Shown: positions 3 to 26,067, counted from the stretch's first letter. The stretch: DNA of 26,147 nt from an uncultured bacterium (GCA_964599925.1 CAZRHN010000005.1:2563-28709), one strand, 5' to 3'. Made by a program: numbers and translations. Notes: a model not told the origin generated them from the sequence alone.

Positions 3-950
3 ATTCTTTTTCTTAATCGGCGTGGGTATTCCACTTTTCTTCTTTGTCGTCGTTGTGGTTTTGTAGCAAAATGTCCACATTGCCATTTAAGTTTGGTTTA
101 TCACTGGCAGGGGAACATTCTTTCCTGTCATTATTGTCGCTATAAGGAAATACTGCCATTTTCTTGTCCTTCCTGTCGCAATTTGCGCTTATCTTTTTCA
201 GGCACGGGCACGGAGAAAGTAGAAAACGAAATTCGTAATTTATTCCCGCAAGCACGCTTACGACGAATGGACTTAGATACGACTAAGAAAAAGGACATCT
301 ATCACGAAATTTATCACGCATTTAAAAATGAAAAGATTGACATTCTTATTGGTACACAGATGATTGCGAAAGGTTTCGATTTCCCAAAGGTAAGTGTGGT
401 AGGGATAATTAATGCTGATACCGCCTTGCATTTACCTGATTTTCGTGCTGCGGAACGCACCTTCCAGTTAGTGATTCAAGTTGCCGGGCGCGCCGGTCGG
501 GCAGAAATACCAGGTAAAGTTATTCTGCAAACATATTGTCCGGAACATTATGCTTTGATAGCGGCTGCGGAACATAATTATGCTAAATTGTATGCAGAGG
601 AAATAAGACTGCGTAAGGAATTGGGTTATCCTCCTTTTGTCCATTTGGTCCGGGTACTTCTCCGCGGGGGAAAAGAAGATAAAGTACGCGCTCTGGCTAC
701 GGAAATTGTTGAAAAAATTAAATCTCAACAGAGATTACTAAAAATTAAGGCTGGCTATCTCAAAGGTATAGAGATAGTTGGACCAACACCAGCCGCCTAC
801 CCACGGATTGCCGGCAAATATCGTTGGCAAATTTTGCTTAAGTCGTGTAAAGATGCGAGTCTCAAGCAAATTCTTGACCCACTTAGAGACCTCTATCACT
901 CAAATAACGTGCAAATATCTTTTGATGCCAATCCTCTGGATATGCTTTGA
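3..950 (+). CDS. priA: Primosomal protein N' (PriA), C-terminal part; gene begins before the window
   Basis: Frame open from base 3 (ILFLNRRGYSTFLLCRRCG...CPHC...CHYC...CPSC zinc motifs); helicase motifs GTEKVE, DILIGTQMIAKGFDFP and QVAGRAGR; C-terminal YPPF. Confidence 0.97.
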   Translation: MLFLNRRGYSTFLLCRRCGFVAKCPHCHLSLVYHWQGNILSCHYCRYKEILPFSCPSCRNLRLSFSGTGTEKVENEIRNLFPQARLRRMDLDTTKKKDIYHEIYHAFKNEKIDILIGTQMIAKGFDFPKVSVVGIINADTALHLPDFRAAERTFQLVIQVAGRAGRAEIPGKVILQTYCPEHYALIAAAEHNYAKLYAEEIRLRKELGYPPFVHLVRVLLRGGKEDKVRALATEIVEKIKSQQRLLKIKAGYLKGIEIVGPTPAAYPRIAGKYRWQILLKSCKDASLKQILDPLRDLYHSNNVQISFDANPLDML

Positions 951-989
951 CCCTGCTCTTTCTCAAGGTCTTTTCAGAAAGGGCGGGGT
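950..989. repeat. Intergenic palindrome, ACCCYGC...GCRGGG family; may also act as a terminator-like hairpin
   Basis: ACCCTGCTCTTTCT (950-963) pairs with AGAAAGGGCGGGGT (976-989): 14 bp including 2 G-T pairs, 12-nt loop. Confidence 0.8.
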
Positions 990-993
990 AAAC

Positions 994-1021
994 TTGACAA
1001 ATCTTATAAATTTTGTAAAAT
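994..1021 (+). promoter_or_regulatory. Sigma70-like promoter upstream of def
   Basis: TTGACA (994-999), 16-nt spacer, TAAAAT (1016-1021). Confidence 0.6.
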
Positions 1022-1028
1022 GACTATC

Positions 1029-1058
1029 GCGTGGGGTAAACCCTGGGGAACCCCACGC
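1029..1058. repeat. Hairpin in the putative def 5' leader
   Basis: GCGTGGGGT (1029-1037) / ACCCCACGC (1050-1058) perfect 9-bp inverted repeat, followed by AAATTTTTT. Confidence 0.7.
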
Positions 1059-1092
1059 AAATTTTTTGATTGCGCTAATTAACTTTATTGCC

Positions 1093-1668
1093 ATGAGCAT
1101 ACGGGAAATAAAAAAATTTAATGAACCTATACTTTACCAGAAGGTTAAACCAGTAGAGAAGGTTACCTTGGAAACTAAAAATTTAATTCAAGACCTGAAA
1201 GATACTCTTCTGGCAAGTAAAGGTGTTGGATTAGCGGCTAATCAAATTGGTGTACCTTTAAGGGTGCTTGTGATAGACTTAAAGTCAGACTCAAGTAGCC
1301 AAGAGCCAAGAGCTTCACCCCGCACCAAACTCGGTGCGGGGCAAGAGAGCCAAGAGCGAATTCTTACTTTAATTAATCCAAAAATAGTTGCTTCTCGAGG
1401 GAGAGAAATTGCTGAAGAGGGATGTTTATCTTTTCCCGGGCTTTATCTCAAAATTAAACGTGCCTCCCGGATAAAAGTGGAAGCCTTGGACTTGCAAGAA
1501 AAATCTATAGTTATTGAAAGTGAGGGTTTACCTGCTCGTGTAATCCAGCACGAAATTGACCATTTGGAAGGGAAAGTTTTTATTGACCGTTTATCTTTCT
1601 GGAAAAGATGGAAAATTAAACGTGAATTAACACGAATAATGAAAGAAAAAACGAATTTACACGAATGA
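1093..1668 (+). CDS. def: Peptide deformylase with an in-frame repeat-derived insertion
   Basis: Motifs GVGLAANQIG, EGCLS and HEIDH. ATG 1093 (MSIREI) is preferred to TTG 1066. Confidence 0.97.
   Translation: MSIREIKKFNEPILYQKVKPVEKVTLETKNLIQDLKDTLLASKGVGLAANQIGVPLRVLVIDLKSDSSSQEPRASPRTKLGAGQESQERILTLINPKIVASRGREIAEEGCLSFPGLYLKIKRASRIKVEALDLQEKSIVIESEGLPARVIQHEIDHLEGKVFIDRLSFWKRWKIKRELTRIMKEKTNLHE
1297..1357. repeat. Composite insertion in def: AGCCAAG heptamers flanking a CCCCGCACC/GGTGCGGGG palindrome
   Basis: AGCCAAG x2 (1297-1310), 9-bp perfect stem (1318-1326 / 1333-1341), AGCCAAG again (1348-1354). Confidence 0.85.
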
Positions 1669-2627: not shown

Positions 2628-2638
2628 TAACTCTTAGG

Positions 2639-3181
2639 ATGAGGCACTGGTTATTAGTTCGTTTTGGTTATCCGATTTTAGTAATTTTATCTAAACTTTT
2701 CCCTTGGGCTGAAGAATTTTATGAATCTGCGTTTATTAATTTTAATAATCAACTGGTAAAAGCAAAAAAAATTGTATTAAAAAAAGCACAACAACTTTTG
2801 GTTCTTTTACCACAATGTTTACAATTTGCTGATTGTCCGCATAAAATTACAAAAAATATACTCAATTGTCACCAATGCGGTAAATGTTTAATTGCTGATT
2901 TAGTTCGTTTGGGTGAAAAATATGGTTTGAAAATAAATGTTGCTACTGGTGGACGGTTAGCACGAAGAATTGTCTCTGACTTCAAACCAAATGCAATTGT
3001 TGCCTGTGCTTGTGAACACGAATTAGCCGATGGCGTTCAGGCGGTATACCCTTTACCAGTATTGGCTATATCCAACAGTCGTCCTTTTGGTCCCTGTTTA
3101 AATACCGGTGTTGATTTAGACAAAATTGAACAAGCAGTAAAAACGTTTTTAGGGGGTGAAAAAGATGAAAAATACATTTAA
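2639..3181 (+). CDS. DUF116-family protein
   Basis: LLVLLPQCLQ...C...CHQCGKC, VATGGRLAR, AIVACACEHEL, RPFGPCLNT pattern; typical position after fmt. ATG 2639 chosen. Confidence 0.8.
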   Translation: MRHWLLVRFGYPILVILSKLFPWAEEFYESAFINFNNQLVKAKKIVLKKAQQLLVLLPQCLQFADCPHKITKNILNCHQCGKCLIADLVRLGEKYGLKINVATGGRLARRIVSDFKPNAIVACACEHELADGVQAVYPLPVLAISNSRPFGPCLNTGVDLDKIEQAVKTFLGGEKDEKYI

Positions 3182-4031: not shown

Positions 4032-4984
4032 TGAAAAGACAAAAATTATTTTATCAGTTACTTTTTACCGGGGTTGTTTTTCTTGGGGTGACTATTTTTC
4101 TTTTTAATCAAATAATGCACATATTGGTGCATCAGAAAAAGACAGTTACTGTGCCAAACTTAATTGGTAAACCGATGGAAGAAGCGCTTGACCTCTTAGC
4201 AAATTTGAATCTGGGGTTACAGAAAGTTGGTGAACGTTACGAGAAAAGATTTTCTCCGGGAACAATAATTCAGCAGAGACCTTCTCCCGGATTAACCGTT
4301 AGAGAAGGAAAAATTATCCGGGTGGCCCTCTCCCGGGGAGGGGAAATAATTTTTATTCCGGATTTAACGAATCAGTCTTTACGTTCTGCAGAGGTTATTT
4401 TACGGCGGAGCAATTTGGCATTAGGTGAAATTGACCAAAGTTACAGTCTTACTGTTGAAAAAGGGAAAATAATTCGCCAGAAACCTTTAGTGGGGACTGC
4501 GGTAGCGAGAGATAGTTTGGTTAATTTAGTTCTTTCTCTTGGATTACCGCCAGCGGGGATAGTATTGATGCCTGATTTCGTAAACAAAAATATTTCCGAA
4601 GCGGAACTCTGGATGCAAGAACGCAATTTAAAAATTAAACAGATTGAGGAAGATACAAATTCAACATTACCGAAAGGGACGATCCTTAAACAGATACCCT
4701 CAGCAGATACCGTGGTGAGCAAAGAAAGCGAGATAAAACTCGTAGTAAGTGGGCGAATTAAAGAAACATTTAAGAAATTATATTGGTTGCATTACGAAAT
4801 ACCGCAGGCAGATGAAGAAAAGAATATCCGTATTTTCCTTGAAGATAGCGCTGGAGAGCGTATCGTCTACGAGAAGGCACATTTACCGGGGACAAAAATT
4901 GATTTACCCTTAGCAGTTGAAGACAAAGGAAAAATAAAAATATTTGCCAACGAAATTTTAGTTGAAGAAAGAATACTTGAATGA
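4031..4984 (+). CDS. Membrane-anchored PASTA-domain protein (about 3 PASTA repeats, no kinase domain)
   Basis: N-terminal TM segment; repeats VPNLIG / IPDLTN / MPDFVN each followed by G.IIxQ.P motifs. Confidence 0.85.
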   Translation: MKRQKLFYQLLFTGVVFLGVTIFLFNQIMHILVHQKKTVTVPNLIGKPMEEALDLLANLNLGLQKVGERYEKRFSPGTIIQQRPSPGLTVREGKIIRVALSRGGEIIFIPDLTNQSLRSAEVILRRSNLALGEIDQSYSLTVEKGKIIRQKPLVGTAVARDSLVNLVLSLGLPPAGIVLMPDFVNKNISEAELWMQERNLKIKQIEEDTNSTLPKGTILKQIPSADTVVSKESEIKLVVSGRIKETFKKLYWLHYEIPQADEEKNIRIFLEDSAGERIVYEKAHLPGTKIDLPLAVEDKGKIKIFANEILVEERILE

Positions 4985-5661
4985 AAAATAAAATTGCCCC
5001 TTCACTACTCAGTGCTGACTTTTCTTGCTTGCAAAAAGAGTTGAAATTAGTTGAGCGTGCCGATGCTGACCTTTTACATCTTGATGTAATGGACGGACAT
5101 TTTGTTCCCAATCTTACATTCGGACCATTATTATTAGAGTCCTTGAGAAAATATACTGCGTTGCCTTTTGATGTTCATTTAATGATTGAAAATCCTGCTA
5201 AATTTGTTGAGCGTTTTATCTCCGCAGGTGCAAAATATATTACCTTCCATTCTGAAGCGTCTACTCCTACGGAAATCAAAAAAATTCTAACTTATCGAAA
5301 GGTGAAAACCGATGGCGGGTATCTCAAAGTTGGCTTGGCGATTAAACCGAAAACTCCACTGGAGACAATTCTTCCCTATCTTAAGAATTTAGATTTGGTG
5401 CTGGTGATGACAGTTGAACCGGGTTTTTCTGGACAGAAATTTATGCCGGAAGTTTTACCTAAAGTAGCCTACTTACGAAAAATCTTAAATAAAAGAAAAC
5501 TTAATTTGGAAATTGAAGTTGATGGTGGGATTAATCCGGCGACTGCAAAACAATGTGCTTTGGCGGGGGCAAGTATTTTTGTTGCGGGGAACAGTATTTT
5601 TCGTAGCGGTAATATCCGAAAAGCAATTTTTGAATTAAGAAAAAGTATTTCTCCCATATAA
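4981..5661 (+). CDS. rpe: Ribulose-phosphate 3-epimerase
   Basis: IAPSLLSADF, HLDVMDGHFVPN, DVHLM, MTVEPGFSGQ, VDGGI. Confidence 0.97.
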   Translation: MKNKIAPSLLSADFSCLQKELKLVERADADLLHLDVMDGHFVPNLTFGPLLLESLRKYTALPFDVHLMIENPAKFVERFISAGAKYITFHSEASTPTEIKKILTYRKVKTDGGYLKVGLAIKPKTPLETILPYLKNLDLVLVMTVEPGFSGQKFMPEVLPKVAYLRKILNKRKLNLEIEVDGGINPATAKQCALAGASIFVAGNSIFRSGNIRKAIFELRKSISPI

Positions 5662-6313: not shown

Positions 6314-7055
6314 GATAGACATAATTACGCTTTTCCCTTCAATGTTTGTTGGTCCCTTTAATGAAAGTATTATCAAAAGGGCAATTGAAAAGGGAAAAGT
6401 AAAAATTTTCGTTCACAATTTACGTAATTTTGGCGTTGCTAAACATCGCCTTTGCGATGATCGCCCTTACGGCGGTGGTCCGGGTATGGTTTTGAAACCC
6501 GAACCAATCTGGCGAGCCCTAAAAGCGATTAAACAAAGAGCAAAGAACAAAAAGCAAAAAATAATTCTTCTTTCTCCGCAGGGAAAACTCTTTAATCAGA
6601 AAGAAGCAGAAAGATTAGCAAAATACAAACATTTAATTTTAATCTGCGCCCATTACGAAGGCGTGGATGAGCGAGTATATTCCTGGATTGATGAAGAAAT
6701 TTCCATCGGTGATTATATTTTAACTGGAGGTGAAATACCTACCTTAGTCCTTGTTGATAGTATTGTTCGTCTTCTACACGGGGTTGTAGGAAAGAGTGAA
6801 TCGCTGAAAAGTGAGTCCTTTAGTGGTAAATTTCTTGATCACCCTCAGTATACCCGACCCCGATGTTACCGAAGTAAAAGGGTGCCCGCAGTTCTCCTTT
6901 CCGGGGATCATAAGAAAATTGCTCTCTGGCGTAGGAAAGAGGCAATTAAAAATACCTATTTACGGCGCCCGGATTTACTGACGAAGATACGTTTAACCAA
7001 AGGAGAGAAAAAAATTGTAGAAAAGGTAAAGAAAAAATATGCGTGGACTGATTGA
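6306..7055 (+). CDS. trmD: tRNA (guanine-N1)-methyltransferase
   Basis: [48 protein letters not shown]; TTG start. Confidence 0.97.
6532..6559. repeat. Degenerate heptamer array AACAAAG-AGCAAAG-AACAAAA-AGCAAAA in trmD
   Basis: 7-nt periodicity; encodes [10 protein letters not shown] in a variable loop. The A-rich composition lowers certainty. Confidence 0.55.
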
Positions 7056-7844: not shown

Positions 7845-8915
7845 ATGATTATTGGTCTTACCGGTCCAAATGCCTGTGGCAAAGGAGAAGTTGCAAAATA
7901 TTTATCCACTAAAGGTTACCGGGTTTACTCTTTATCCGATGTTTTACGTACCGAAGCAGAAAAAGTGGGGTTAGACCTTTCTCGCCAAAATTTGATTAAT
8001 TTTGGACGGAAATTAAGAAAAAAATATGGTAAAGCAGTACTGGTAAAAAAACTTTTATCGCAAATTCAAAAACATAAAAATGTAGTCATTGACAGTATAA
8101 GAAATACTGGCGAAATTAGCGAATTGCGTAAACTATCAACTATCAACTCTCAACTGTCAACTGTTTTTATTCTTGGTGTTGATGCACCAGCAAAATTGCG
8201 TTATCAAAGATTGTGTCAACGCAAACGTTTAGGGGACACAAAAACTTTTACTGAATTTATGGAAACTGAAAAAAAGGAAAATTCTTCAAATAAATTTAAC
8301 CAACAAATTAGCCACTGTATGAAATTAGCCGATAAAGTTATCATCAATGACAGTTCGCTTAAACAATTACATAAAAGAATTGACTCTTTTCTTTCTGCAA
8401 TTGAGAACTCCCGCTTACCACTTACCACTCACTACTCACCAGTTCCCCGTCCCTCATGGGATAAATATTTTCTTAAACTTGCATTATTGGTTGCCGAAAG
8501 GTCAACCTGTCGGAGACACCATGTTGGTGCGGTAATTGTCCGTGATAAACGTCTGCTCACTACCGGTTATAACGGTGCACCAGCGGGAGTAAAAGATTGC
8601 CTTGAGTTGGGTTGTTTAAGGGAAGAATTAGGTATACCTTCAGGAACAAGACAGGAAATCTGTCGGGCGATTCATGCAGAACAAAATGCAATTATTCAGG
8701 CGGGGTTATACGGAATAAATATTGAAGGAGCAACAATTTATTGCACTCATACACCCTGCACTCTTTGTGCACGGATGCTTGCTAATGCAAAAATAAAAAG
8801 ATATGTTACCTGCGGAACTTATGCCGATAAGTCTTTTTGTTCTCTGTTTAATGAGGCAAAAATAAAATTTGCCAAACTTAAAAAACCGAACTTAAAAATA
8901 GGAATTTTAGATTGA
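7845..8915 (+). CDS. Fusion: P-loop NMP/dephospho-CoA-kinase-like domain plus dCMP (cytidine/deoxycytidylate) deaminase
   Basis: N-terminal IIGLTGPNACGKGEVA (Walker A), LSDVLR, VIDSIRN. C-terminal RPSWDKYF, RSTC, VGAVIV, TGYNG, HAEQNAI, PCTLC. ATG 7845 chosen. Confidence 0.88.
   Translation: MIIGLTGPNACGKGEVAKYLSTKGYRVYSLSDVLRTEAEKVGLDLSRQNLINFGRKLRKKYGKAVLVKKLLSQIQKHKNVVIDSIRNTGEISELRKLSTINSQLSTVFILGVDAPAKLRYQRLCQRKRLGDTKTFTEFMETEKKENSSNKFNQQISHCMKLADKVIINDSSLKQLHKRIDSFLSAIENSRLPLTTHYSPVPRPSWDKYFLKLALLVAERSTCRRHHVGAVIVRDKRLLTTGYNGAPAGVKDCLELGCLREELGIPSGTRQEICRAIHAEQNAIIQAGLYGINIEGATIYCTHTPCTLCARMLANAKIKRYVTCGTYADKSFCSLFNEAKIKFAKLKKPNLKIGILD
8131..8163. repeat. Heptamer array AACTATC-AACTATC-AACTCTC-AACTGTC-AACTG, in-frame
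   Basis: Read directly; encodes KLSTINSQLST. Confidence 0.9.
8414..8441. repeat. Heptamer array CTTACCA-CTTACCA-CTCACTA-CTCACCA, in-frame in the interdomain linker
   Basis: Read directly; encodes LPLTTHYSP just before the deaminase RPSW motif. Confidence 0.85.
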
Positions 8916-8969: not shown

Positions 8970-9620
8970 ATGGTAGAGAACTTATTTTGGTTAGGGCATG
9001 CAAGTTTCAAAATTACCGGAGAGATGGTTCGAGACCCTCACCATCCCGAGCAAAGTCGAAGGATGGTTGTCTATGTTGACCCCTGGCAGATAAAGAAAGG
9101 TGGTGAGCCGGCAAACATAATTTTGATTACTCATGACCATTATGACCATTGTTCAGCAGAAGATGTAAAAAAGATACAAACCAAAGATACAGTTATTGTT
9201 ACTGTTTCTCAGTGTAAAAGTAACCTTAGTGGTGAAATAATTATTACCAAACCGAATGAAAAAATTACTGTGCAAGGAATTGAGATAAGTGCTGTACCGG
9301 CTTACAATCTCAATAAGCCTTTCCATCCCAAAGCAAACGGTTATCTCGGTTTTATTGTTAATTTGAATAAGAAACTTTATTATCATGCCGGGGATACTGA
9401 TTTCATTCCCGAAATGGAAAAGGTTAAATGTGATATTGTCCTTTTACCAGTCTCGGGAACTTATGTGATGACCGCGGAAGAAGCAGCGAAAGCGACTGAG
9501 AAAATTAAACCTGCACTTGCGATCCCAATGCATTATGGCAGTATCGTCGGGTCAAGAAAAGATGCTGAACAGTTTAAAAAGTTATGTGAATGTTCGGTAG
9601 AAATCTTAGAAAAAAGTTGA
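8970..9620 (+). CDS. MBL-fold metallo-hydrolase (UlaG-like/beta-lactamase superfamily)
   Basis: WLGHASF, THDHYDH (HxHxDH), YHAGDT, AIPMHYG. Confidence 0.9.
   Translation: MVENLFWLGHASFKITGEMVRDPHHPEQSRRMVVYVDPWQIKKGGEPANIILITHDHYDHCSAEDVKKIQTKDTVIVTVSQCKSNLSGEIIITKPNEKITVQGIEISAVPAYNLNKPFHPKANGYLGFIVNLNKKLYYHAGDTDFIPEMEKVKCDIVLLPVSGTYVMTAEEAAKATEKIKPALAIPMHYGSIVGSRKDAEQFKKLCECSVEILEKS
9023..9068. repeat. Palindromic element in-frame in the MBL gene, bounded by GATGGTT direct repeats
   Basis: GATGGTT at 9023-9029 and 9062-9068 (39 nt apart); internal TTCGA...TCGAA inverted repeat. Confidence 0.8.
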
Positions 9621-9624: not shown

Positions 9625-11205
9625 ATGTTTTATCTTGAACCGTTAGTTCTACCCGAAGAAGAAAATTTTACCGACCGTTATTTAAAATTATCTAAAAATT
9701 TGTTTTCCCTCGGCTTTGCTCGGGATGGTGAAAATATTGAACTATTAGCCCAAGATAAAGATATGAATTATCAGCAAATTCCCTTGAGCCTCAATGAAAA
9801 AATTTTGCGCATAATCTGGTATGAACAAAAATTTGAACGGCGTGGTTTAAGGACAGTTGATGGTAAAAAGATTTGTATTATCTCACCCGGTGAATGGAAT
9901 CTTGATGAGGGACCAGATTTTAAAAGTGCGGAGATACGTTTTGGTGAAAAGATAATTTCTGGAGATATTGAAGTAGACCTGAAAGCATCCGACTGGAAGA
10001 AACATCAACATAACTGTGATGAGAAATATAATCAAGTAATCCTTCATGTTTTTTTTCTCAATAATCGCAAAGAAGAAAAAATTGCCCGAAAAGCAAATCA
10101 GGAATACGCTGAGCGTGTGGAACTGCGCGGAGCGTTGAGAGAAGATTACCTCCCCAATCCGGAAGATATGGAAAATTATCCTTCCCGTGCTTATTTAAAA
10201 AGAGGTAACTGTGGTAAAAAAATTTCTGTTCATAGTTATCCCTTAATAGAGAAGTTACTCCTCTGGGCTGGCGCGGGAAGATTTTTATTAAAAACCGAAC
10301 GGTTTAATCAGCGCTTAGCACGATTATCTTTTGACCAACTTCTTTATGAAGGGGTAATGGAAGGTCTAGGTTATAAAGCGAACCGTGAGCCGATGCTTAC
10401 TCTCGCTCGCTTGTTACCTTTAGAAAAAATTAAAAGTTATGTGGAAGATTTTCCTCTTGAAGAAAAAATTTACCTCCTGGAGACACTTTATTTTTATCTT
10501 TCTGGACTTTTACCAGAAGAAAAATATTTTTCTTCTTCTTCTTGTCCAGAAACAAAAATTTATCTTGAAAAGTTATGGACAATTCTGAAAAATTATCTGA
10601 AATTTCTGCCTACACCTTTTCATCTCAGTCGCTGGGTATTTAAAGGTGTCCGTCCGGCGAATTTTCCTTTAAGACGTCTTTCGGGGATAAGCCATTTTCT
10701 TAACCGCCATTGGCAAGGAGTAAAGGAAGGTTTTTTTCTTTCTTTCTATAAAAAAATAAAGATGGCTAATTCAATAAATGAGTTGAAAAAAATTTTTTTT
10801 CAACCTGGGGAAGGATATTTTGCCAACCACAGCCAATTTTCCCAGAAAAAAAGTAAAAAAGTATATGCTTTAATTGGTGAAGAACGAGTTTCGGCAATTC
10901 TGGTGAATACAGTTTTTCCTTTATATTACCTTTATGCATTGCGGGAAAATGATTTATCTACCCAGAAGATAATCTATTCGTTTTATCACTCTTTGAAAAG
11001 AATAAACGTTAACCATATTGCTAAATTGATGGCTTACCGTCTTTTTGGTGCAGAGAAAATCAGGCAATTTCCGATTGAAAGCGAACAAAAACAGCAAGGT
11101 CTTTTACAAATTTTTCAAGATTTTTGCGAGACAAGAATTTCCGCTTGTGGACAATGTTTCTTTCCACAAATTTTTGATTTGTCAATTGGCGAAATAATAA
11201 AGTGA
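9625..11205 (+). CDS. DUF2851-family protein; start could be ATG 9763
   Basis: EKILRIIW, PGEWNLDEGPDF, GDIEV..KASDWKKHQH..D..YNQVILHV, RPANFP..RL pattern recalled for DUF2851. Confidence 0.75.
   Translation: MFYLEPLVLPEEENFTDRYLKLSKNLFSLGFARDGENIELLAQDKDMNYQQIPLSLNEKILRIIWYEQKFERRGLRTVDGKKICIISPGEWNLDEGPDFKSAEIRFGEKIISGDIEVDLKASDWKKHQHNCDEKYNQVILHVFFLNNRKEEKIARKANQEYAERVELRGALREDYLPNPEDMENYPSRAYLKRGNCGKKISVHSYPLIEKLLLWAGAGRFLLKTERFNQRLARLSFDQLLYEGVMEGLGYKANREPMLTLARLLPLEKIKSYVEDFPLEEKIYLLETLYFYLSGLLPEEKYFSSSSCPETKIYLEKLWTILKNYLKFLPTPFHLSRWVFKGVRPANFPLRRLSGISHFLNRHWQGVKEGFFLSFYKKIKMANSINELKKIFFQPGEGYFANHSQFSQKKSKKVYALIGEERVSAILVNTVFPLYYLYALRENDLSTQKIIYSFYHSLKRINVNHIAKLMAYRLFGAEKIRQFPIESEQKQQGLLQIFQDFCETRISACGQCFFPQIFDLSIGEIIK
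9706..9730 (-). repeat. Second copy of the 9039-9063 element, inverted orientation
   Basis: Reverse complement CACCATCCCGAGCAAAGCCGAGGGA vs CACCATCCCGAGCAAAGTCGAAGGA: 23/25 identical. Confidence 0.9.
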
Positions 11206-12578
11206 AAACCTGTTTATTGATGAAAAAAATATTCGGGAAAAAAAATTTTGGACTCCTTAAGGAAATTGGGCAAGCAGCCCAAGAGGATGGTCTTACTGCT
11301 TATTTGGTTGGTGGGCCGGTACGTGATTTTCTATTGAATAAGCTGAGTAAACCCTGCACCAGAAGGATGCAGGGCAAGGATTTAGATATTGTAATTTCCG
11401 GTGGAGAGAAACTTGAGGAAAATACGGCAATAAATTTGGCAAAAAAGTTATTTAAAATTTGGTCGCCTCATCGGCGACTTGCCGGAGAGGCATGGCAGAA
11501 AAGAATAAAATTTAAGATACATCAGCGTTTCGGAACAGCGACCATTTTATTTCCTGAAAAAGGAAACCAACTTTTAGAAATAGACTTTGCTTTTTCCCGT
11601 AAGGAAAACTATCCTTCTCCTGGTAGATTGCCGGAAGTGGAGCCAGGCAATATTGAAGACGACCTTTATCGTCGGGATTTTACGATTAATGCTTTAGCAG
11701 TAAATTTAAGTTCGGACGAGTTTGGCGAATTGGTCGATTCTACTGATGGAAAAAACGATTTAAAAAAAAAATTTATTCGTGTGCTTCACGAAAAAAGTTT
11801 TCTTGATGATCCGACCAGGATATTGCGGGCGGCACGCTTCGCCGGAAGATATAATTTTTCTTTAGAAAAAAAAACTTTAACTTGGTTAAAAGAAGCGATA
11901 AAGAAAAATGCGCTTTTCACAATTAGCCGGCAACGTTTCCGCGAAGAGATGGTGAACATTTTGAAGGAGAAAGAGTCCGCTCATTGCCTTAATTTACTTG
12001 CTGATTGGAGTGTGTTAAGTTTCTTGAGTCCTGATATCCGTTGGGATAAAACCAAAACTATAGATTATAAAATGGAAAAAGGAGACGAAAATTGGTTGGT
12101 AGGGTTGCTTCTGCTGATCAAAGATTTAGATTATCAAAAGACGGAAGAAATTACCAGAAGGATGGTTTTAACCCGCAAGGAGAGAAAAATAATTCTCCAG
12201 AGTAAGAAATATTTACCCGATGCTCTTAAAGCATTGGAGAAAAACTATTCACTTACCCATCTTTATCACTATCTTTCTTTACTTCCCGAACAAGGGTTGA
12301 TATACTTAGGGGTGACCAATTCTTGTTGGACAAATCTAATTGGTACTTTTCAGAGGAGAAAAGACAAAGCAAAACCGGTACTCAACGGTGAAGATTTGAA
12401 AAAAATAGGATATCCTCCAGGGCCAATTTATAAAAAAATATTGAAAAAAATTTTTCAGGTTAAACTTTTAGGTAAGTTGCCGACTTACCTATCAGAAAAA
12501 CAGACTAAGGAAAAAGAAATCAAATTTGTCCTCCGACATTTTCCTCTTAAAGGGGTGACAGCGAAGGAGCGCGCCTAA
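11202..12578 (+). CDS. Class II tRNA nucleotidyltransferase / poly(A) polymerase family
   Basis: LVGGPVRDFLL, DLDIV, RRDFTINALA, SFLDDPTRILRAARF, LNGEDL..G.PPGP. CCA-, A- or CC-adding specificity cannot be determined from this. Confidence 0.9.
   Translation: MKTCLLMKKIFGKKNFGLLKEIGQAAQEDGLTAYLVGGPVRDFLLNKLSKPCTRRMQGKDLDIVISGGEKLEENTAINLAKKLFKIWSPHRRLAGEAWQKRIKFKIHQRFGTATILFPEKGNQLLEIDFAFSRKENYPSPGRLPEVEPGNIEDDLYRRDFTINALAVNLSSDEFGELVDSTDGKNDLKKKFIRVLHEKSFLDDPTRILRAARFAGRYNFSLEKKTLTWLKEAIKKNALFTISRQRFREEMVNILKEKESAHCLNLLADWSVLSFLSPDIRWDKTKTIDYKMEKGDENWLVGLLLLIKDLDYQKTEEITRRMVLTRKERKIILQSKKYLPDALKALEKNYSLTHLYHYLSLLPEQGLIYLGVTNSCWTNLIGTFQRRKDKAKPVLNGEDLKKIGYPPGPIYKKILKKIFQVKLLGKLPTYLSEKQTKEKEIKFVLRHFPLKGVTAKERA
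11351..11378. repeat. ACCCYGC-family palindrome in-frame in the nucleotidyltransferase
   Basis: CCCTGCA-CC / GG-A-TGCAGGG followed by CAAG; encodes KPCTRRMQGK. Confidence 0.75.
11465..11491. repeat. Second palindrome in-frame in the nucleotidyltransferase
   Basis: GCCTC-A-TCGGC / GCCGG-A-GAGGC stem with loop GACTT; within SPHRRLAGEAW. Confidence 0.7.
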
Positions 12579-12770
12579 CGAAGTAGCGAGCGAGTAAGCG
12601 CAATAAGGGGTCGCTGACCGACACTGTCTGAGCGACGAAAAGGAGCTCGTGTCTTGACAGGCCCGAAGGGCAGGATGTCGGGACTTGCGACACAGGCTGA
12701 ACGACGAAGAGGAGTTCGTGCCTTGCGTGCGGCAAAGCCGTGCGAAGTCCTTGATTCTCCTCTATTGAGA
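12541..12770. mobile_element. Candidate non-autonomous structured repeat element (MITE/REP-like), long variant
   Basis: GC-rich multi-hairpin block homologous to 25889-25904 and 25978-26067; contains a 69-nt-period internal duplication. Mobility is inferred, not shown. Confidence 0.6.
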
Positions 12771-12776
12771 GAAAAG

Positions 12777-13387: not shown

Positions 13388-14401
13388 ATGAAAAGAATTC
13401 TTTCTGGAATGCGTCCTTCGGGAAAATTGCATGTTGGTCATTATTTTGGTGCTCTAAACAACTGGGTAAATTTGCAAGATTCATATGAGTGCTATTATAT
13501 GATTGCTGATTGGCATGCGTTAACTTCTGAATATGCGAATCCAGGTGAACTTCAAGAAAATATATCGGAGATGGTCATTGATTGGTTAGCCTCCGGAATT
13601 AACCCGAACAAAAGTGTTCTTTTCCGTCAATCGGAAGTTAAGGAACACGCAGAACTACATTTGCTACTTTCAATGATTATACCCCTCCCCTGGCTTGAAC
13701 GCTGTCCGACTTACAAGGAACAATTACAAGAAATTAAAGATAGAGATTTATCAACCTATGGATTTTTAGGTTACCCAGTTTTACAGGCGGCAGACATTCT
13801 TATTTACAAGGCGGAATTTGTCCCGGTTGGCGAAGATCAGTTACCACATTTAGAATTATCCCGGGAAATTGCACGGCGATTTAACAATTTTTATGGTTCA
13901 CCCCGCCCTTGCACACAAGAGCGGGGTAAAATTTTACCCGAACCTCAGGCATTACTGACGGAAACAGCGAAATTGCCGGGTGTTGATGGGCGAAAGATGT
14001 CAAAATCTTATAATAACGCAATTTACCTCTCGGATTCGGAAGAAGGGGTTACCGAGAAAGTAAGGAATATGTTTACTGATCCGCAAAAAATAAGAATTGA
14101 TGACCCCGGACATCCGGAGACTTCCGGCTGCGTGGTTTACGCTTTTTATCAAGCCTTAGCTCCACACTTTTTTGAAAAAGTGCGGGGTGAATGTGAAAAA
14201 GGAAAAATTGGTTGCGTTGCCTGTAAAAAGGAACTGGCTGTAATTTTGAATCACTTTTTAGAGCCCTTTCGGAAAAGACGAAAAGAATTAGCCTCTGACC
14301 CAGAAAAAATTAAAAAAATTCTTCTTCAAGGAAAAGAAAAAGCGCAAATTGTTGCTCAGAAAACAATGGCCGAAGTGCGTAAAGCAATGAATCTTCAATA
14401 A
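13388..14401 (+). CDS. trpS: Tryptophan--tRNA ligase
   Basis: SGMRPSGKLHVGHY (HIGH), GYPVLQAADIL, VPVGEDQ, KMSKSY. Confidence 0.97.
   Translation: MKRILSGMRPSGKLHVGHYFGALNNWVNLQDSYECYYMIADWHALTSEYANPGELQENISEMVIDWLASGINPNKSVLFRQSEVKEHAELHLLLSMIIPLPWLERCPTYKEQLQEIKDRDLSTYGFLGYPVLQAADILIYKAEFVPVGEDQLPHLELSREIARRFNNFYGSPRPCTQERGKILPEPQALLTETAKLPGVDGRKMSKSYNNAIYLSDSEEGVTEKVRNMFTDPQKIRIDDPGHPETSGCVVYAFYQALAPHFFEKVRGECEKGKIGCVACKKELAVILNHFLEPFRKRRKELASDPEKIKKILLQGKEKAQIVAQKTMAEVRKAMNLQ
13900..13930. repeat. ACCCYGC-family palindrome in-frame in trpS
   Basis: ACCCCGC-C-CTTG / CAAG-A-GCGGGGT; encodes SPRPCTQERG. Confidence 0.85.
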
Positions 14402-14404
14402 TAC

Positions 14405-14503
14405 GATGCAAACAGATAAAAGAGACGATGTAGACGAGATAAAAAAGCTGATTCAAACAAATGAAAAAATCTGTCTGAATCATAGCAGTTATCTGTCTGG
14501 ATC
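14405..14503. repeat. Nested inverted array of ~13-nt modules filling the trpS-scpA intergenic region
   Basis: Left modules GATGCAAACAGAT, GATGTAGACGAGAT, GATTCAAACAAAT; right modules ATCTGTCTGAATC, ATCTGTCTGGATC. Confidence 0.7.
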
Positions 14504-15789: not shown

Positions 15790-17811
15790 ATGAAAACTTA
15801 CGAAAAAGAAAATTTGCGTAATGTCTGTTTTCTTGGTAGTGGCGGAAGTGGTAAAACTTCGCTATTGGAAACGCTATTTTATAATGCTGGAGTAATTACC
15901 CGTTTAGGAAAAGTGGGAGAAGGAAATACTATTTCCGACTTTACCCCTGAAGAAATCGATCGGAAAAGTTCACTTTATCTTACCTTGGCTTCCCTTGAGT
16001 ATAAAGATAAAAAAATAAATTTCCTAGATACACCGGGTTATGCTGATTTTATCGGTGAAGTTTACGCAGCGATGAATGTCTGTGAAACAGCAATTTTCGT
16101 GCTTGATAGTAGTGTCGGTTTGGATCTAACTTTAGAAAGTCTCTGGGAGGAAGCTACAACCAAGGGGTTAGTTCCCGTGATTTATATTAATAAATTGGAT
16201 AAAGAAGAGATTAATTTCTGGCATTTCATTGAAGAAATAAAAAAGAAGTTAACTCCCCAAGCACAACCATTTTATCTCCCTTACGGTGAGGCAGTAAATT
16301 TTTCCGGGGTTGTTGACCTTTTAAATAAAAAATTGCTTAAGTTCTCAGAAACAAAAACCGAGACTTTAGAAATACCTTCAGAACTTGAAGATTTAGTTGA
16401 AAAAAAGCACGCCGAACTTATTGAAACTATCGCCAGTGAAGATGAAGTCTTGATTGAAAAATATTTAAATGGCGAAGAAATTAAGTTAAATGAACTGAAG
16501 GTAACCTTGGAAAAAGCAATCAGGGAAAGAAAAATTGTGCCTCTCTTTTGTGGTTCAACAATAAAGAACATCGGTCCTCATGTCCTCCTTGATTTTATAA
16601 TTGACTATTTTCCGAAACCAAGGATTGAGGAAAAAAATTCTTTAAGTGTACTAATTTTTAAAACTTTTCTTGAACCGCACACAGGCAAAATTTCATATCT
16701 GAAAGTCCATTCGGGAACTTTGGCTCAAGGAACTGATGTATACAATTCTAATCGTCGGATTCGTGAACGCGCTGGGCAACTGTGTGTAGTGCAGGGTAAA
16801 AAACGTATTGATGTGCCTAATTTATCGGCAGGTGACCTTGGTTGCGTGGCTAAATTGAAAGAAAGTTTAACTAACGATACCCTATGTAATGAGAAAGAAG
16901 TAATAACCCTTAAACCGATTGTTTTTCCTCAAGCCAGTATGGATCTGGCAATTTATCCGAAAACTTCAGGAGAGGAAGAAAAAATTGCCAATGCTCTATC
17001 GGTAGTTGTTCAGGAAGACCCGACAATTAAGTGGCATTATAATACCGAGACCAAAGAGACGGTTGTTTACGGTATCGGGGAAACCCAGTTGGAAGTGATG
17101 ATTAATCGGATTAAGGAAAGGTATAATGTGGGGGTTGAATTACGCCGTCCACGGGTACCATATAAGGAGACAATTAAAATTAAATCTGAAGTGCAAGGGA
17201 AATATAAACGTCAATCTGGAGGAAGAGGACAATACGGTGATTGCTGGTTACGTCTTGAACCATTAGAACGGGGTAAAGGATACGAATTTATTGATGCAAT
17301 CCGTGAAGGAAGAATACCAAAAAATTATATTCCTTCCATTGAAAAAGGTGTAAAACAGGCGATGGAAGAAGGAATAATTGCCGGTTATCCAGTAGTAGAT
17401 ATAAAAATAACTCTTTATGATGGTTCCTATCATGAAGTTGACTCTTCGGATATTGCTTTTAAAATTGCTGGAGCGATGGCTTTAAAGAAAGGCGTTGAAC
17501 AGGGGAAACCAATAATTTTGGAGCCGATAGTGAATGTAGAAATAACTATCCCTGAAGAATATTTAGGTGCAGTGGTTGGCGACTTGAATGCCCGTCGGGG
17601 GAGGGTTCTGGGCACAGAAGCACAAGGAAGAAAACAAATTGTTAAGGCACAGGTACCGTTTACGGAAATGTATAAATATGCTGCTCAATTACGTTCCTTA
17701 AGTAAAGGGAGCGGAAAATTTCAGATGAATTTGTCTCATTATGAGGAAGCACCGCAACCGGTTACTCAAAAACTAATTGAAGAATATCAAAAAATAAAAC
17801 ATGGCGAATAA
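15790..17811 (+). CDS. Elongation factor G-like protein (EF-G2 / FusA2 class)
   Basis: Full EF-G architecture (GKYKRQSGGRGQYG, DGSYHEVDSS, GDLNARRGRV) with divergent GTPase motifs GSGGSGKTS and DTPGYADF. Confidence 0.9.
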   Translation: MKTYEKENLRNVCFLGSGGSGKTSLLETLFYNAGVITRLGKVGEGNTISDFTPEEIDRKSSLYLTLASLEYKDKKINFLDTPGYADFIGEVYAAMNVCETAIFVLDSSVGLDLTLESLWEEATTKGLVPVIYINKLDKEEINFWHFIEEIKKKLTPQAQPFYLPYGEAVNFSGVVDLLNKKLLKFSETKTETLEIPSELEDLVEKKHAELIETIASEDEVLIEKYLNGEEIKLNELKVTLEKAIRERKIVPLFCGSTIKNIGPHVLLDFIIDYFPKPRIEEKNSLSVLIFKTFLEPHTGKISYLKVHSGTLAQGTDVYNSNRRIRERAGQLCVVQGKKRIDVPNLSAGDLGCVAKLKESLTNDTLCNEKEVITLKPIVFPQASMDLAIYPKTSGEEEKIANALSVVVQEDPTIKWHYNTETKETVVYGIGETQLEVMINRIKERYNVGVELRRPRVPYKETIKIKSEVQGKYKRQSGGRGQYGDCWLRLEPLERGKGYEFIDAIREGRIPKNYIPSIEKGVKQAMEEGIIAGYPVVDIKITLYDGSYHEVDSSDIAFKIAGAMALKKGVEQGKPIILEPIVNVEITIPEEYLGAVVGDLNARRGRVLGTEAQGRKQIVKAQVPFTEMYKYAAQLRSLSKGSGKFQMNLSHYEEAPQPVTQKLIEEYQKIKHGE

Positions 17812-18712
17812 ACTTGCACTCTCTGCTGCTTTCCTTATTCCAGATTGTCATTCTGGCGAAGATTTAATTAATCAAAGTATCAATTTAGGTTTCTCAGCTT
17901 TAGAATTAAATATTGAAGTTACCGAGAAGATGATTATGGAGATAAAGCGTGCTGCCCAAGAAAAGAAAATTGAAGTTGTGAGTCTGCATAATTTCTGCCC
18001 AAAACTTGATTTCATTCCAGCAGGAAGAGATTTGCTTGACGCTTATCAATTTTCTTCCCCTGACCCAGAAGAAAGAAAAAAGGCAATTGAATTAACTAAA
18101 AGGACAATTGACTATGCTGCTGATTTAGAAGCAAAAGTGGTAGTTATTCATGCTGGAGAAGTAGAAATTGAATCCGATGAAGGGAAACTTTTCTGGCAAT
18201 TTGCAAGAGGGAAAAACAGTAGTGATTATCTGGAAAGAGTAAAAAAAGAACGAAAAGAAAAGGAAAAGATATATCTGGAAAATAGTTTAAAATCCATAGA
18301 AGAATTGGTTAATTATGTGCAAAAAAAGAAAGTTAAAATTGGTTTGGAGAATCGTTTTTTTTATCATGAGATACCTAATTTTGAAGAGATCGGTTTTTTC
18401 CTTAAGCATTTCTCTGATGGGTTAGGTTATTGGCACGATACCGGGCACGCAGAAGTCTCTGCAAAGTTGGGTTTTGTGCCTAACCGCGAGGAGTATCTCA
18501 AAATCTATGGTTCACGAATGATTGGTATCCATCTGCACGATGTAGTTGGTTTATTTGACCATCATGCTCCTGGAACCGGTGAGATTGATTTTACTTTTTT
18601 AACAAAATATACGAATTCGTCAGTAATTAAAGCGGTTGAAGCCCATTGTTGTTCAACTGTTCCTGAAGTAAAAGCAAGCATTAGTTATTTAAAAAAGGTA
18701 GGTATTGTCTAA
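17801..18712 (+). CDS. Sugar phosphate isomerase/epimerase (xylose-isomerase-like TIM barrel, AP endonuclease 2 family)
   Basis: SLHNFCP, VVIHAG, GLENR, WHDTGHA, IHLHD, DHHAPGTGEIDF. Confidence 0.8.
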   Translation: MANKLALSAAFLIPDCHSGEDLINQSINLGFSALELNIEVTEKMIMEIKRAAQEKKIEVVSLHNFCPKLDFIPAGRDLLDAYQFSSPDPEERKKAIELTKRTIDYAADLEAKVVVIHAGEVEIESDEGKLFWQFARGKNSSDYLERVKKERKEKEKIYLENSLKSIEELVNYVQKKKVKIGLENRFFYHEIPNFEEIGFFLKHFSDGLGYWHDTGHAEVSAKLGFVPNREEYLKIYGSRMIGIHLHDVVGLFDHHAPGTGEIDFTFLTKYTNSSVIKAVEAHCCSTVPEVKASISYLKKVGIV

Positions 18713-18718
18713 AAGTTG

Positions 18719-18737
18719 CCCCGATGTCATGTCGGGG
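18719..18737. repeat. CCCCGATG-family short palindrome
   Basis: CCCCGA-TGTCATG-TCGGGG; resembles CCTCGATG-TAA-CATCGGGG at 25913-25931. Confidence 0.65.
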
Positions 18738-18749
18738 TGGGAGGGGGAA

Positions 18750-23934: not shown

Positions 23935-24680
23935 AAAATTTTCTTCGTTGGTTAATTACTTTTCTGTTTTATTCCTGTTTGACTGTGATTATCGGTATCT
24001 ATTTACTCCTTTTCCTTAATTTGTCTACTCTGATTGAAGGCTTGAAAAATGAAATTGAATTAACTGTTTTTCTTAAAGATAACCTTACAGCAGAAACTAT
24101 CGGTCAATTAGGAGAAAAATTGCGTCATGATGAAAAAATAGGTAAAGTAAGTTATACCTCTAAAGATGATGCCTTGAAAGAATTCCAAAGTGAGCCTTTA
24201 TTGTCCCGTGCTATTACTATAGTGGGAGAAAATCCTTTACCCGCATCTTTTACAGTTTATCCCCTTACCTATGAGGAGGGAGTAATTTACGAACTTTCTA
24301 CCCGCGTATCTTCTTTCCCGGGGGTAGAAAAAGTTGTTTATAATACGGAAATCTTAGCGAAATACAAGTATTTAACTACTCTTTCAAAATCGTTGAGAGT
24401 ATTTAACTACATTTTTTTAGGGATTGTTTCTCTTATTCTAATTTCTCTTTTTGTGTATACTGCTTATACTTTTTCCTGGGTTAAGTCTTTTCCTATATTA
24501 TTAGAGCAGGTTAGTTTAGTCTTACCAGGAATACTAAGCGGATTAATTCTCCTTTACCTTTTTAGCAAGACCCTAAAAGGAAATATTGTCTTTTTTAATT
24601 TTACCCAGGTATTTTTCTTTTTCTTAGGAATAGTAACTTTAAGCGTTTCTCTCAGTTTCTACCTTAGTCTTCAAAAATAA
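23931..24680 (+). CDS. ftsX: FtsX-like permease (short, divergent C-terminal half)
   Basis: TM1, extracellular loop (VFLKD, YTSKDDALKEF, NPLPASFTV, GVEKV), three further hydrophobic segments; precedes an EnvC-like gene. Confidence 0.75.
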   Translation: MKNFLRWLITFLFYSCLTVIIGIYLLLFLNLSTLIEGLKNEIELTVFLKDNLTAETIGQLGEKLRHDEKIGKVSYTSKDDALKEFQSEPLLSRAITIVGENPLPASFTVYPLTYEEGVIYELSTRVSSFPGVEKVVYNTEILAKYKYLTTLSKSLRVFNYIFLGIVSLILISLFVYTAYTFSWVKSFPILLEQVSLVLPGILSGLILLYLFSKTLKGNIVFFNFTQVFFFFLGIVTLSVSLSFYLSLQK

Positions 24681-24684
24681 AGAG

Positions 24685-25824
24685 ATGCGCCCAAAATACA
24701 TTTTTATAATTTTATTTTTTTCTCTTGCTCGAATTGTATTCGCTCAAGGTTATGACCAACAATTAAAAGAATATGAAAAAGAAATTAAGAGCAAACAAGA
24801 GGAACTCCAAAGGTTGTATAAGGAGATAGAAAAACTTGACCAGGAAACAGAAAAAACTAAAAAGAAAGAAAAAGGTTATTACCAAGAAATAAATAAAGTT
24901 GAAAACGAAATTCGTTTTCTTTTGGATGCATTAAAAAAACTTGAAAATAAGAAAAAGCAAATTGAAAAACAGGTGCAAGAAACAGAAAAAATGTATCAAT
25001 TAACTGAGGAAGAAAGAACTCGTTTAGCAAATCTCCTTAAACAAGAAATAAAATTCTTTTATACTTGGCAGAAATTTTCCCCCGATTTACGTAAAAATTA
25101 TTACCTGCTCAATTTCATTAAACAAAAAGGTAATGTTTATGAACTAACTGAAGACAAGAAAAAGCAAATAGAAAAAAAGAAAAACCTTCTACTTGAAAAA
25201 CGTGAGGAAACTCTACAAGAAAAAGATAAAATACAAAGGCAAGAAAAAACTGTTGTAAATTTGAAAAGAGAAAAAGAACAAATACTTACTCAAGTTAAAA
25301 CCCAACGGGTTACTCAGGAAAAAGAAATTGAGAATCTAAAAAAAGCAACTGCGGATTTAGAAAAATTTATTTTTGATTTAGAAGGGAAGAAAAAAGAAAC
25401 TGAAGAGGCAAAAAAGCAAGCAGTTCTTGCTCGGAAAGCTTTTGCAGAAAAGAAGGGTTATTTACCCTGGCCGGTTTATGGTGAAATAGTGACTAAATTT
25501 GGTAAACAAAGACACCAGGAATTTAACACTTATATTGTTAGCAACGGAATAAAAATTCGCTCAAAGGGAGAAAAAAATGTAAGTGCGGTAGCACAAGGGA
25601 AGGTAGTTTTTGCAGGTAATTTTCAAACTTACGGGAAGATGGTTATTCTTGACCATCAGGGCGGATTTTATAGTATTTACGGTTCACTAAATGAAATCTT
25701 AGTTAAAGAAGGAAAAGACGTCCTCTTAGGGGAACAAATAGGTAATCTTGGTGAAGAATCTTTATATTTTGAATTACGGAGTGAAGGTCAGCCCGTTGAC
25801 CCTTTACCTTGGCTACAAAAGTAA
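24685..25824 (+). CDS. EnvC-like murein hydrolase activator (coiled coil plus degenerate LytM/M23)
   Basis: Signal/TM N-terminus, long coiled coil, LPWPVYG...FG. SNGIKI and LYFELR stand where active M23 enzymes have HxxxD and HxH ligands. Confidence 0.85.
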   Translation: MRPKYIFIILFFSLARIVFAQGYDQQLKEYEKEIKSKQEELQRLYKEIEKLDQETEKTKKKEKGYYQEINKVENEIRFLLDALKKLENKKKQIEKQVQETEKMYQLTEEERTRLANLLKQEIKFFYTWQKFSPDLRKNYYLLNFIKQKGNVYELTEDKKKQIEKKKNLLLEKREETLQEKDKIQRQEKTVVNLKREKEQILTQVKTQRVTQEKEIENLKKATADLEKFIFDLEGKKKETEEAKKQAVLARKAFAEKKGYLPWPVYGEIVTKFGKQRHQEFNTYIVSNGIKIRSKGEKNVSAVAQGKVVFAGNFQTYGKMVILDHQGGFYSIYGSLNEILVKEGKDVLLGEQIGNLGEESLYFELRSEGQPVDPLPWLQK

Positions 25825-25851
25825 AAAATTTTACAGGCTTTTTCTAAGCAC

Positions 25852-25880
25852 TTGACAAACTTCAAAAAATTTGTTAAATT
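25852..25880 (+). promoter_or_regulatory. Sigma70-like promoter upstream of tRNA-Met
   Basis: TTGACA (25852-25857), 17-nt spacer, TAAATT (25875-25880). Confidence 0.65.
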
Positions 25881-25888
25881 AAAAACAA

Positions 25889-26067
25889 TTCCTCTTAAAG
25901 GGGTAGCAGTGACCTCGATGTAACATCGGGGGAACACAATATCCCGACTATTGTCGGGATTTGAGTACGAGTTTAACTCCTCTTAAGGGAATGACAGTGA
26001 AGGCAACTCTGACTAACGAAGTGTCAGAGCGACTGAACGCAATAAAGGGGGTATCCCCTTATTGAGC
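25889..26067. mobile_element. Candidate structured repeat element cluster (two element heads plus short palindromes)
   Basis: TTCCTCTTAAAGGGGT (25889-25904) is identical to 12541-12556; 25978-26067 aligns with 12542-12610 plus 12757-12769; hairpins at 25913-25931 and 25941-25960. Confidence 0.6.

Follow-up and report, generated by a model that had tools for sequence, protein, structure and literature searches.

Small hairpin inserts and heptamer arrays in housekeeping genes of an uncultured Elusimicrobiota-like bacterium

The DNA analysed here (the window) is a stretch of 26 147 nt from an uncultured bacterium (GCA_964599925.1, CAZRHN010000005.1:2563-28709) in which small GC-rich hairpin inserts and tandem arrays of 7-nt units lie inside the reading frames of housekeeping genes. 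It has a GC content of 37% and contains 28 genes, all housekeeping genes on the plus strand, in the order priA (3' part), def, fmt, DUF116, htpX, a PASTA protein gene, rpe, rpsP, a KH protein gene, trmD, rplS, yraN, a kinase-dCMP deaminase fusion, an MBL-fold gene, DUF2851, a CCA/poly(A) nucleotidyltransferase gene, a site-2 protease gene, trpS, scpA, scpB, an EF-G paralogue, a xylose-isomerase-like TIM-barrel protein gene, a galT-like gene, glgA, DUF5693, a pyruvyl transferase gene, an ftsX-like gene and an M23 peptidase gene, followed by tRNA-Met. All open reading frames (ORFs) were intact, and a Pfam search of all of them returned housekeeping families only and no transposase, as the original prediction, made from the sequence alone, had stated. 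The host is an uncultured Elusimicrobiota-like lineage; its nearest named homologues are proteins from metagenome-assembled genomes (MAGs) of Elusimicrobia/Endomicrobiia with at most 66% identity, and metagenomic relatives reach 75–92% identity. A scan of genome contigs with TrmD yielded distant relatives only (at most 60% identity).

For comparison, related metagenomic loci were used (L037, L039, L040, L042, L044, L062, L063, L064 and others), together with a background set of 534 kb from unrelated bacteria; two further loci (L001 and L002) were identical to the window and carried no comparative information. The window sequence was assembled independently from two samples and is therefore not an assembly artefact. 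Hairpins were found with a custom hairpin scan, an inverted-repeat finder with a 9-nt seed having missed nearly all elements, and tandem arrays were called with TRF, with 100 dinucleotide shuffles serving as control. Five perfect GC-rich hairpins were present in the window against 0.89 expected in shuffles, and the motif patterns of the hairpin families had no matches in the 534 kb from unrelated bacteria. A scan of the window for GC islands did not discriminate (85 islands versus 72.5 in shuffles).

The clearest insert lies in trpS, where an element of family A, consisting of TTCA and an imperfect 26-nt palindrome, occupies positions 13897–13926 (plus strand). It is exactly 30 nt long, is in frame and encodes ..SPRPCTQERG.., and a peptide spanning the insert junction would read ..NNFYGSPRPCTQERGKILPE... 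The insert corresponds to an exact 10-residue gap in the alignment with the Thermotoga (T. maritima) TrpRS, and in the TrpRS model it is placed in a low-confidence (low-pLDDT) loop after helix 149–169. In L039, whose trpS is 92% identical, the site is empty and reads TATGG|TAAAAT; the window reads TATGG[TTCACCCCGCCCTTGCACACAAGAGCGGGG]TAAAAT, so that exactly 30 nt separate the two alleles; a clear target duplication is lacking, and no parent insertion sequence (IS) was seen. Exact matches to the insert sequence CACCCCGCCCTTGCnnnCAAGAGCGGGG were obtained at 12 further metagenomic loci, all of 34–42% GC, in one scan of JGI metagenomes, and in related metagenomic genomes no fewer than six other housekeeping genes contain the sequence in frame. 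Among the hosts of family A in relatives are genes resembling peptidyl-tRNA hydrolase, MBL hydrolase, glycosyltransferase, cysteine desulfurase and RNA 3'-phosphate cyclase (all five names were read from translations, without Pfam check), and a copy in the TIM-barrel (sugar-phosphate isomerase-like) gene of L037 is read in another frame than in trpS. Copies of family A occur in both orientations and differ only in the 3-nt loop; five of the six frames are used and the sixth ends in a TGA stop. A mismatch at one position of the stem, C.A when read on one strand and T.G on its complement, is constant, TTCA is kept in 10 of 12 copies, and the copies are single or direct tandem modules, the inverted-pair organisation of REPIN and BIME elements not being observed. 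Viral contigs yielded no family A element.

Two further observations concern family A. Blocks of 90–480 nt containing it are repeated three times within 5.8 kb (L051 2196–5064; L056 535–1028), between aroK/aroB and genes which by sequence, without Pfam check, resemble toxin-antitoxin genes, and these blocks appear to be larger composite repeats built from small modules. The 3' part of tRNA-Met, GGGTTCAAATCCCACCCCCGC, and its acceptor stem GCGGGG/CCCCGC (window 26076–26147) resemble the start of family A, GGTTCACCCCGC, and its outer stem (13895–13906), a likeness that may be due to chance or may hint at tRNA ancestry.

The trpS site after ..NNFYG carries differing inserts in different lineages, the window holding the 30-nt family A element, L062 a different 24-nt insert of the form TTCA-hairpin-GGGG, L037 a 96-nt array of several modules, all of them opening with TTCACC, L063 a 15-nt tandem repeat and L064 another hairpin; L039 and three other orthologues have no insert there. 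A second trpS site has family C in L039 as well as in P0009, and L062 has a family A-like hairpin at the identical nucleotide; family C also occurs in an fmt orthologue, in another frame. Since unrelated inserts stand at the same loop positions across relatives, these positions are hot spots and not the result of single events; the tolerant loops either are hit repeatedly or exchange cassettes. Nested copies were seen in L045, in trpS of L037 and at 12542–12776 of the window.

The original prediction had listed eight palindromic inserts in coding regions, of which six were recovered (def, the MBL-fold gene, DUF2851, two in the nucleotidyltransferase gene, and trpS). The remaining two had been placed in rplS and rpsP: in rplS, a segment of 7 aa is inserted in comparison with solved L19 structures, but it is clade-conserved and not palindromic, and the C-terminal tail of rpsP is GC-rich, with no palindrome or second copy found. 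In def, TTCA and a perfect 24-nt hairpin with the stem CCCCGCACC/GGTGCGGGG lie in frame at 1314–1341 (plus strand), embedded in a heptamer array with CAAGAGC units called by TRF on the left flank (1292–1313) and the heptamers CAAGAGAGC CAAGAGC, read directly from the sequence, on the right flank (1342–1357). The TTCA-hairpin is 28 nt long, and a 2-nt AG duplication in the following heptamer unit brings the total to 30 nt and restores the frame. It falls within a segment of about 17–20 aa (residues about 76–96) without counterpart in solved deformylases, the loop being 9 aa longer in the window than in L040 and L042, and its stem recurs in the DUF2851 gene of L062 (2361–2387).

Family B, with the core pattern TCACCATCCYGAGC...CGARGG, is represented in frame by two 39-nt copies, one in the MBL-fold gene (9024–9062, plus strand, core TCACCATCCCGAGCAAAGTCGAAGG) and one in DUF2851 (9703–9741, minus strand, reverse complement TTCACCATCCCGAGCAAAGCCGAGGG), and both sites are empty in L037 and L062. 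In L037 and L042 the family was found again in trmD, scpB and the TIM-barrel gene, and L040 has repeated copies as well. Viral contigs of high GC content (57–59%) from IMG/VR carry ATGGTTCGACATGCTCACCATCCTGAGCGAAGTCGAAGG (L058 20–44, minus strand of the locus; L059 4878–4902) in an architecture as in family B (MVR..HHPE.SRR), and, as judged from these sequences, the repeat class of family B seems to extend far outside the host lineage. A GC-rich stretch of DUF2851 at 10105–10142 was rejected as an insert because it is conserved native sequence. The nucleotidyltransferase gene holds a perfect 27-nt hairpin insert, CCCTGCA/TGCAGGG, at 11349–11375 (plus strand), where the site is empty in L037 and L039 has a different, shorter insert, and a 32-nt double mini-hairpin of family E, GGTCGCCTCATCGGCGACTTGCCGGAGAGGCA, at 11461–11492 (plus strand), which is absent from L062; a copy of family E with 91% identity lies at the 5' end of the L042 deaminase gene (17201–17232). 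Empty-site alleles, expected if the inserts are mobile, were thus present in orthologues 88–92% identical, and the refuting outcome named with the original prediction, motifs without excess or orthologues that lack empty sites, did not occur. The inserts lie in variable loops, in agreement with the predicted addition of peptides to tolerant loops. Among internal indels of at least 5 aa between close relatives, about half of 32 rows (some events being counted in more than one pairwise comparison) were GC-rich and folded at −8 kcal/mol or better, in a genome of 37% GC.

Seven heptamer arrays were called in the window, matching the seven predicted (def, three in fmt, trmD, two in the kinase-deaminase gene), against 0.25 on average and never more than 2 in the shuffles and 15 in the 534 kb from unrelated bacteria. 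In the TRF output, period 7 was nearly the sole tandem period with at least 2.8 copies in the window. Besides the def array, these are (all plus strand, TRF) CTACTCG ×4.3 at fmt site 1 (1866–1895), AAAGTGT ×4.4 at fmt site 2 (2377–2407), ACCTATC ×4.6 with 100% matches at fmt site 3 (2437–2468), a weak A-rich CAAAGAG array with 83% matches in trmD (6534–6558), AACTATC ×4.6 in the kinase domain (8131–8162), which adds 4 aa relative to L037, and ACCACTC in the linker joining the kinase and dCMP-deaminase domains (8417–8441). The net gain in length from heptamer arrays is 0–5 residues; the trmD array adds 3 aa relative to solved TrmD and none relative to L037 and L040, and at fmt site 1 the length is the same as in E. 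coli Fmt and in Elusimicrobia outgroups. At fmt site 1 the units are CTACTCG in the window, TTCTCAA ×4.3 in L044 and AATCACC ×4.4 in L040, the arrays being of equal length, no array is present in L042, and the loop of the outgroups is non-repetitive and of equal length; the arrays therefore mostly overwrite variable loop-coding DNA instead of lengthening it. A sudden swap of the fmt site 1 array in an identical background was rejected, since the surrounding tract is itself 75–80% identical and forms a recombination mosaic. When 35 heptamer arrays were compared, the units were heterogeneous without a shared consensus, and an assignment to one sequence family was rejected because their similarity was not clearly above chance; no sequence identity to cyanobacterial short tandemly repeated repetitive (STRR) units was seen. 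In-frame stops limit the arrays, as direct reading of the AAAGTGT array shows, where the third junction is mutated. Heptameric repeats are over-represented in bacteria, and a polymerase-slippage hypothesis has been proposed (PMC4692102). The heptamer arrays look like products of local slippage more than of mobility, a phenomenon distinct from the hairpin elements. The view of the window as colonised by several families of repeat elements in core genes held for the palindromic inserts, which are dispersed families in unrelated genes of relatives, and was not supported for the heptamer arrays, which are not an element family.

All five intergenic blocks for which structure had been predicted (950–1058, 12541–12770, 14405–14503, 18719–18737 and 25889–26067) proved to be structured or repeated. 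Block 950–1058 contains two hairpins (fold z = −4.9): a family A-like one with a 14-bp stem that includes two T.G pairs, placed immediately behind the priA stop codon (950–989, plus strand), which matches the regular expression ACCCYGC..GCRGGGT and is identical in L044, and a perfect 9-bp GC-rich hairpin, GCGTGGGGT/ACCCCACGC, upstream of def (1029–1058). Family D, a structured repeat of about 90 nt with three stem-loops and with compensatory changes between copies in the middle stem, fills at 12542–12776 (plus strand), with nested hairpin inserts, the entire spacer up to the site-2 protease start at 12777 and also forms the end of the nucleotidyltransferase reading frame, namely its last codons and its stop; a copy related to it lies in the DUF116-htpX spacer of L042. 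Block 25889–26067 comprises one and a half family D copies and two hairpins, namely a partial family D head with the hairpins at 25890–25977 (plus strand), of which 25913–25932 resembles the L064 trpS insert and 25941–25960 has a perfect 8-bp stem, and a basic copy of about 90 nt at 25978–26067 (plus strand), 8 nt upstream of tRNA-Met. The trpS-scpA spacer holds the AT-rich long hairpin of family F (14405–14503, plus strand, z = −3.5), which has an orthologous copy in the same spacer of L037 and partial copies in the def-fmt spacer of L040 and the spacer between the site-2 protease gene and trpS of L037. Between the sugar-phosphate isomerase-like gene and galT, a family A-like hairpin lies at 18716–18740 (minus strand, reading CACCCCGACATGACATCGGGG), at a site conserved in L039. 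An Rfam search at E ≤ 1 returned tRNA-Met only, leaving the intergenic families without a match, and known RNA families were rejected on this ground; a CRISPR repeat was rejected for the same lack of an Rfam match and because no regularly spaced arrays were present, and the plus-strand intergenic hairpins were rejected as intrinsic terminators because they have no T tails.

Two strong sigma-70-like sites lie between or adjoining intergenic hairpins, TTGACA-16-TAAAAT at 994–1021 (11 of 12 matches) and TTGACA-17-TAAATT with TG at 25852–25880, and a 24-nt stretch over the former recurs adjoining a family A-like element in L056. Because the repeats are stop-free, mechanical ORF calls of the site-2 protease (12654–12776) and galT (18705–18749) genes extend upstream through them; the public gene call of the protease (242 aa) includes the repeat extension, and orthologues start at 12777 (protease) and 18750 (galT).

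Recombination was apparent in the comparison of loci. Over 771–2886 the window and L044 form a mosaic of blocks with 100% identity (about 921–1370 and 2371–2870) and of 75–80% identity (1671–1920), a pattern that points to frequent recombination among strains. The kinase and the dCMP deaminase are encoded by one fused ORF in the window (7845–8915) and in L037, and by separate overlapping genes in L040 (18144–19302) and L042 (16613–17744). Repeats are always present at their junction (the heptamer array 8417–8441 in the window, a pair of heptamer arrays in L040, family E in L042) and may have made or broken the fusion. L037 1–5512 and L042 12189–17743 are 99.5% identical up to the junction and 83% identical beyond it; the junction is a recombination breakpoint at a repeat-rich site, and a clean recent insertion there was accordingly rejected. 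Downstream, L040 and L042 carry restriction-modification genes where the window has the MBL gene.

We consider it probable that two repeat processes have colonised the host genome, one of small mobile hairpin elements and one of slippage-born heptamer arrays. Several GC-rich hairpin families, mostly of 24–39 nt and two intergenic ones of about 90 nt, would be mobile now or would have been so recently, and would fill almost every intergenic spacer; in essential genes a copy would survive only if its length is a multiple of three, its frame is stop-free and the site codes for a tolerant surface loop, and it would then be read through as 8–13 extra residues. Heptamer arrays would form locally through slippage during replication, in steps of 7 nt, in variable loop-coding DNA of the kind that also holds the hairpins, and would turn over quickly, filtered by frame and stop codons, without being copies of one element. 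For the hairpin families this reading is carried by their dispersal across unrelated genes, their presence or absence between close relatives, their compatibility with the reading frame and their location in loops. A number of points weigh against it. Differing inserts at one loop position across relatives could reflect rapid divergence or cassette exchange instead of repeated insertion, and only about a dozen exact copies of family A came from a very large metagenome collection. At fmt site 1 the array segment replaces ancestral sequence of equal length, which simple insertion does not explain, and at the second nucleotidyltransferase site the repeat-bearing segment likewise replaces sequence of equal length in L037. 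Only the intact reading frames point to translation of the inserts. HUH/Y1 enzymes were sought in related loci, about 220 kb in total, with a crude motif screen that gave no hit, and the Pfam search of the window gave none for transposases.

All relatives vary at these loop positions, where they carry unrelated sequences, and some segments are replaced at constant length, as would fit fast-evolving native loops in which GC-rich hairpins arise locally, for example by template switching or quasi-palindrome correction, without mobility. This is nevertheless very unlikely, given that a 28-nt sequence, identical save for its 3-nt loop, stands in at least seven unrelated genes in both orientations; families B and E and the def-type stem recur in unrelated genes too, and local origin is contradicted for families A, B and E. 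Hairpins and arrays might instead stem from one system like the small dispersed repeats (SDRs) or STRRs, moving through an RNA or single-strand intermediate, with the arrays as landing pads or footprints. The def hairpin does lie inside a CAAGAGC array, modules are found nested and in tandem, and several heptamer units contain TCACC, the motif that opens family A and B modules; yet this is the only case in which array and hairpin are physically linked (one of the seven window arrays), the similarity among units is not clearly above chance, and the TTCA-plus-hairpin module is enriched only about fourfold, on small numbers, which makes a common system an improbable though not far-fetched account. 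That the hairpins are functional RNA or DNA signals under selection, such as terminators, mRNA stabilisers or protein-binding sites, and not selfish DNA, we regard as extremely unlikely. REP (repetitive extragenic palindromic) elements do have secondary signal roles, intergenic copies flank the promoter-like sites 994–1021 and 25852–25880, and some copies are conserved at orthologous spacers; but the plus-strand intergenic hairpins, lacking T tails, were not called as terminators, none has an Rfam match, and copies within essential coding regions in either orientation, present or absent among close relatives, are unexpected for required signals.

If small hairpin elements are mobile, as we favour, the layout of family A, a 5' tetranucleotide followed by a hairpin with a conserved asymmetric mismatch, would allow single-strand recognition by an enzyme supplied in trans, analogous to the RAYT-type HUH proteins that act on REP elements, and movement would be driven by that enzyme. 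By analogy, the tetranucleotide, the mismatched hairpin, the directly abutting modules and the absence of a clear target duplication suggest a chemistry most like that of REP elements and HUH enzymes (RAYT, IS200/IS605) on single strands. The elements may also move through RNA, a route that has reportedly been proposed for the small dispersed repeats of Nostoc. No transposase is listed among the genes of L037, L040 and L042, which are long related loci. L064 has an rve-family integrase gene between trpS and scpA (4925–5356), the sole transposase-like gene in any related locus and without evident link to the small repeats. More speculatively, and with doubt prevailing, the TTCA-hairpin modules of about 30 nt could be an undescribed class, frame-neutral by construction, recently active in an Elusimicrobiota lineage, repeatedly hitting or exchanging at the same loops and co-occurring with heptamers as SDRs and STRRs do in Nostocaceae, which would point to a mobilisation machinery shared across distant phyla; family B, for its part, has near-identical relatives in the viral contigs of high GC content.

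Hairpin repeats that sit in essential genes and are absent at the same sites in close relatives behave like the smallest mobile DNA. Mobile DNA as short as 30 nt would here have spread through the essential proteome of a free-living bacterium, adding 8–13 residues to proteins such as TrpRS and deformylase, and the same family A element is carried by relatives' genes that by sequence resemble those of peptidyl-tRNA hydrolase and IscS/NifS. The filled and empty alleles constitute a natural data set on the movement of such elements and on insertion-tolerant protein loops. The repeats also make gene callers over-extend ORFs, as with the starts of the site-2 protease and galT, and inflate protein length variation in MAG catalogues.

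Among known systems, REP, BIME and REPIN elements (RAYT, HUH Y1) are similar in being imperfect palindromes of 25–35 nt with a conserved 5' tetranucleotide, which is GTAG in the E. coli REP and TTCA here, and a stem mismatch, and in being dense in intergenic spacers, clustered and nested, with different elements at one site in different strains. They differ in being extragenic, whereas six verified window copies lie inside coding regions, in frame, in essential genes; moreover, the copies described here are single or in direct tandem and not in inverted pairs, and no RAYT was found in the window or the approximately 220 kb of related loci. The SDR1–8 families of Nostocaceae, described by Elhai et al. 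in 2008, are reportedly 21–27 nt long, often embedded in tandem heptamers and nested in their own copies. They share with the present elements the size class (palindrome cores of 24–26 nt) and the hairpin common to families of different sequence; heptamer embedding is represented here by one clear case (def), and nesting by L045, the L037 trpS and window 12542–12776. We know of no systematic in-frame use of SDRs in core genes. SDRs have been reported as confined to Nostocaceae (PMC5861425). The arrays resemble cyanobacterial STRR and heptameric repeats in that tandem 7-nt units are strongly over-represented relative to other periods in one lineage (PMC4692102), but STRR and Xanthomonas arrays have one consensus unit and are mainly intergenic, whereas here the units vary by array and lie inside coding regions. 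Miniature inverted-repeat transposable elements have terminal inverted repeats and a target-site duplication and derive from an IS; here the filled and empty trpS alleles are set apart by exactly 30 nt, a clear duplication is lacking, and no parent IS was seen. A literature search on translated repeat peptides and Elusimicrobia repeats returned nothing relevant. Rickettsia palindromic elements (RPEs) are in-frame palindromic selfish DNA of about 150 bp (Ogata et al. 2000, summarised in PMC10969869). Like these, the present elements are palindromic selfish DNA in frame in unrelated housekeeping genes, where they would add an extra peptide that is tolerated by the fold; unlike RPEs, which have a conserved peptide in one frame, they are 24–39 nt long, use five of six frames and belong to an unrelated phylum. 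In the literature of this phylum that was searched there is no record of the combination which the sequences suggest, namely an SDR-like size and association with heptamers together with an RPE-like in-frame colonisation of core genes; it would extend the SDR- and REP-like phenomenon beyond cyanobacteria, proteobacteria and Rickettsia.

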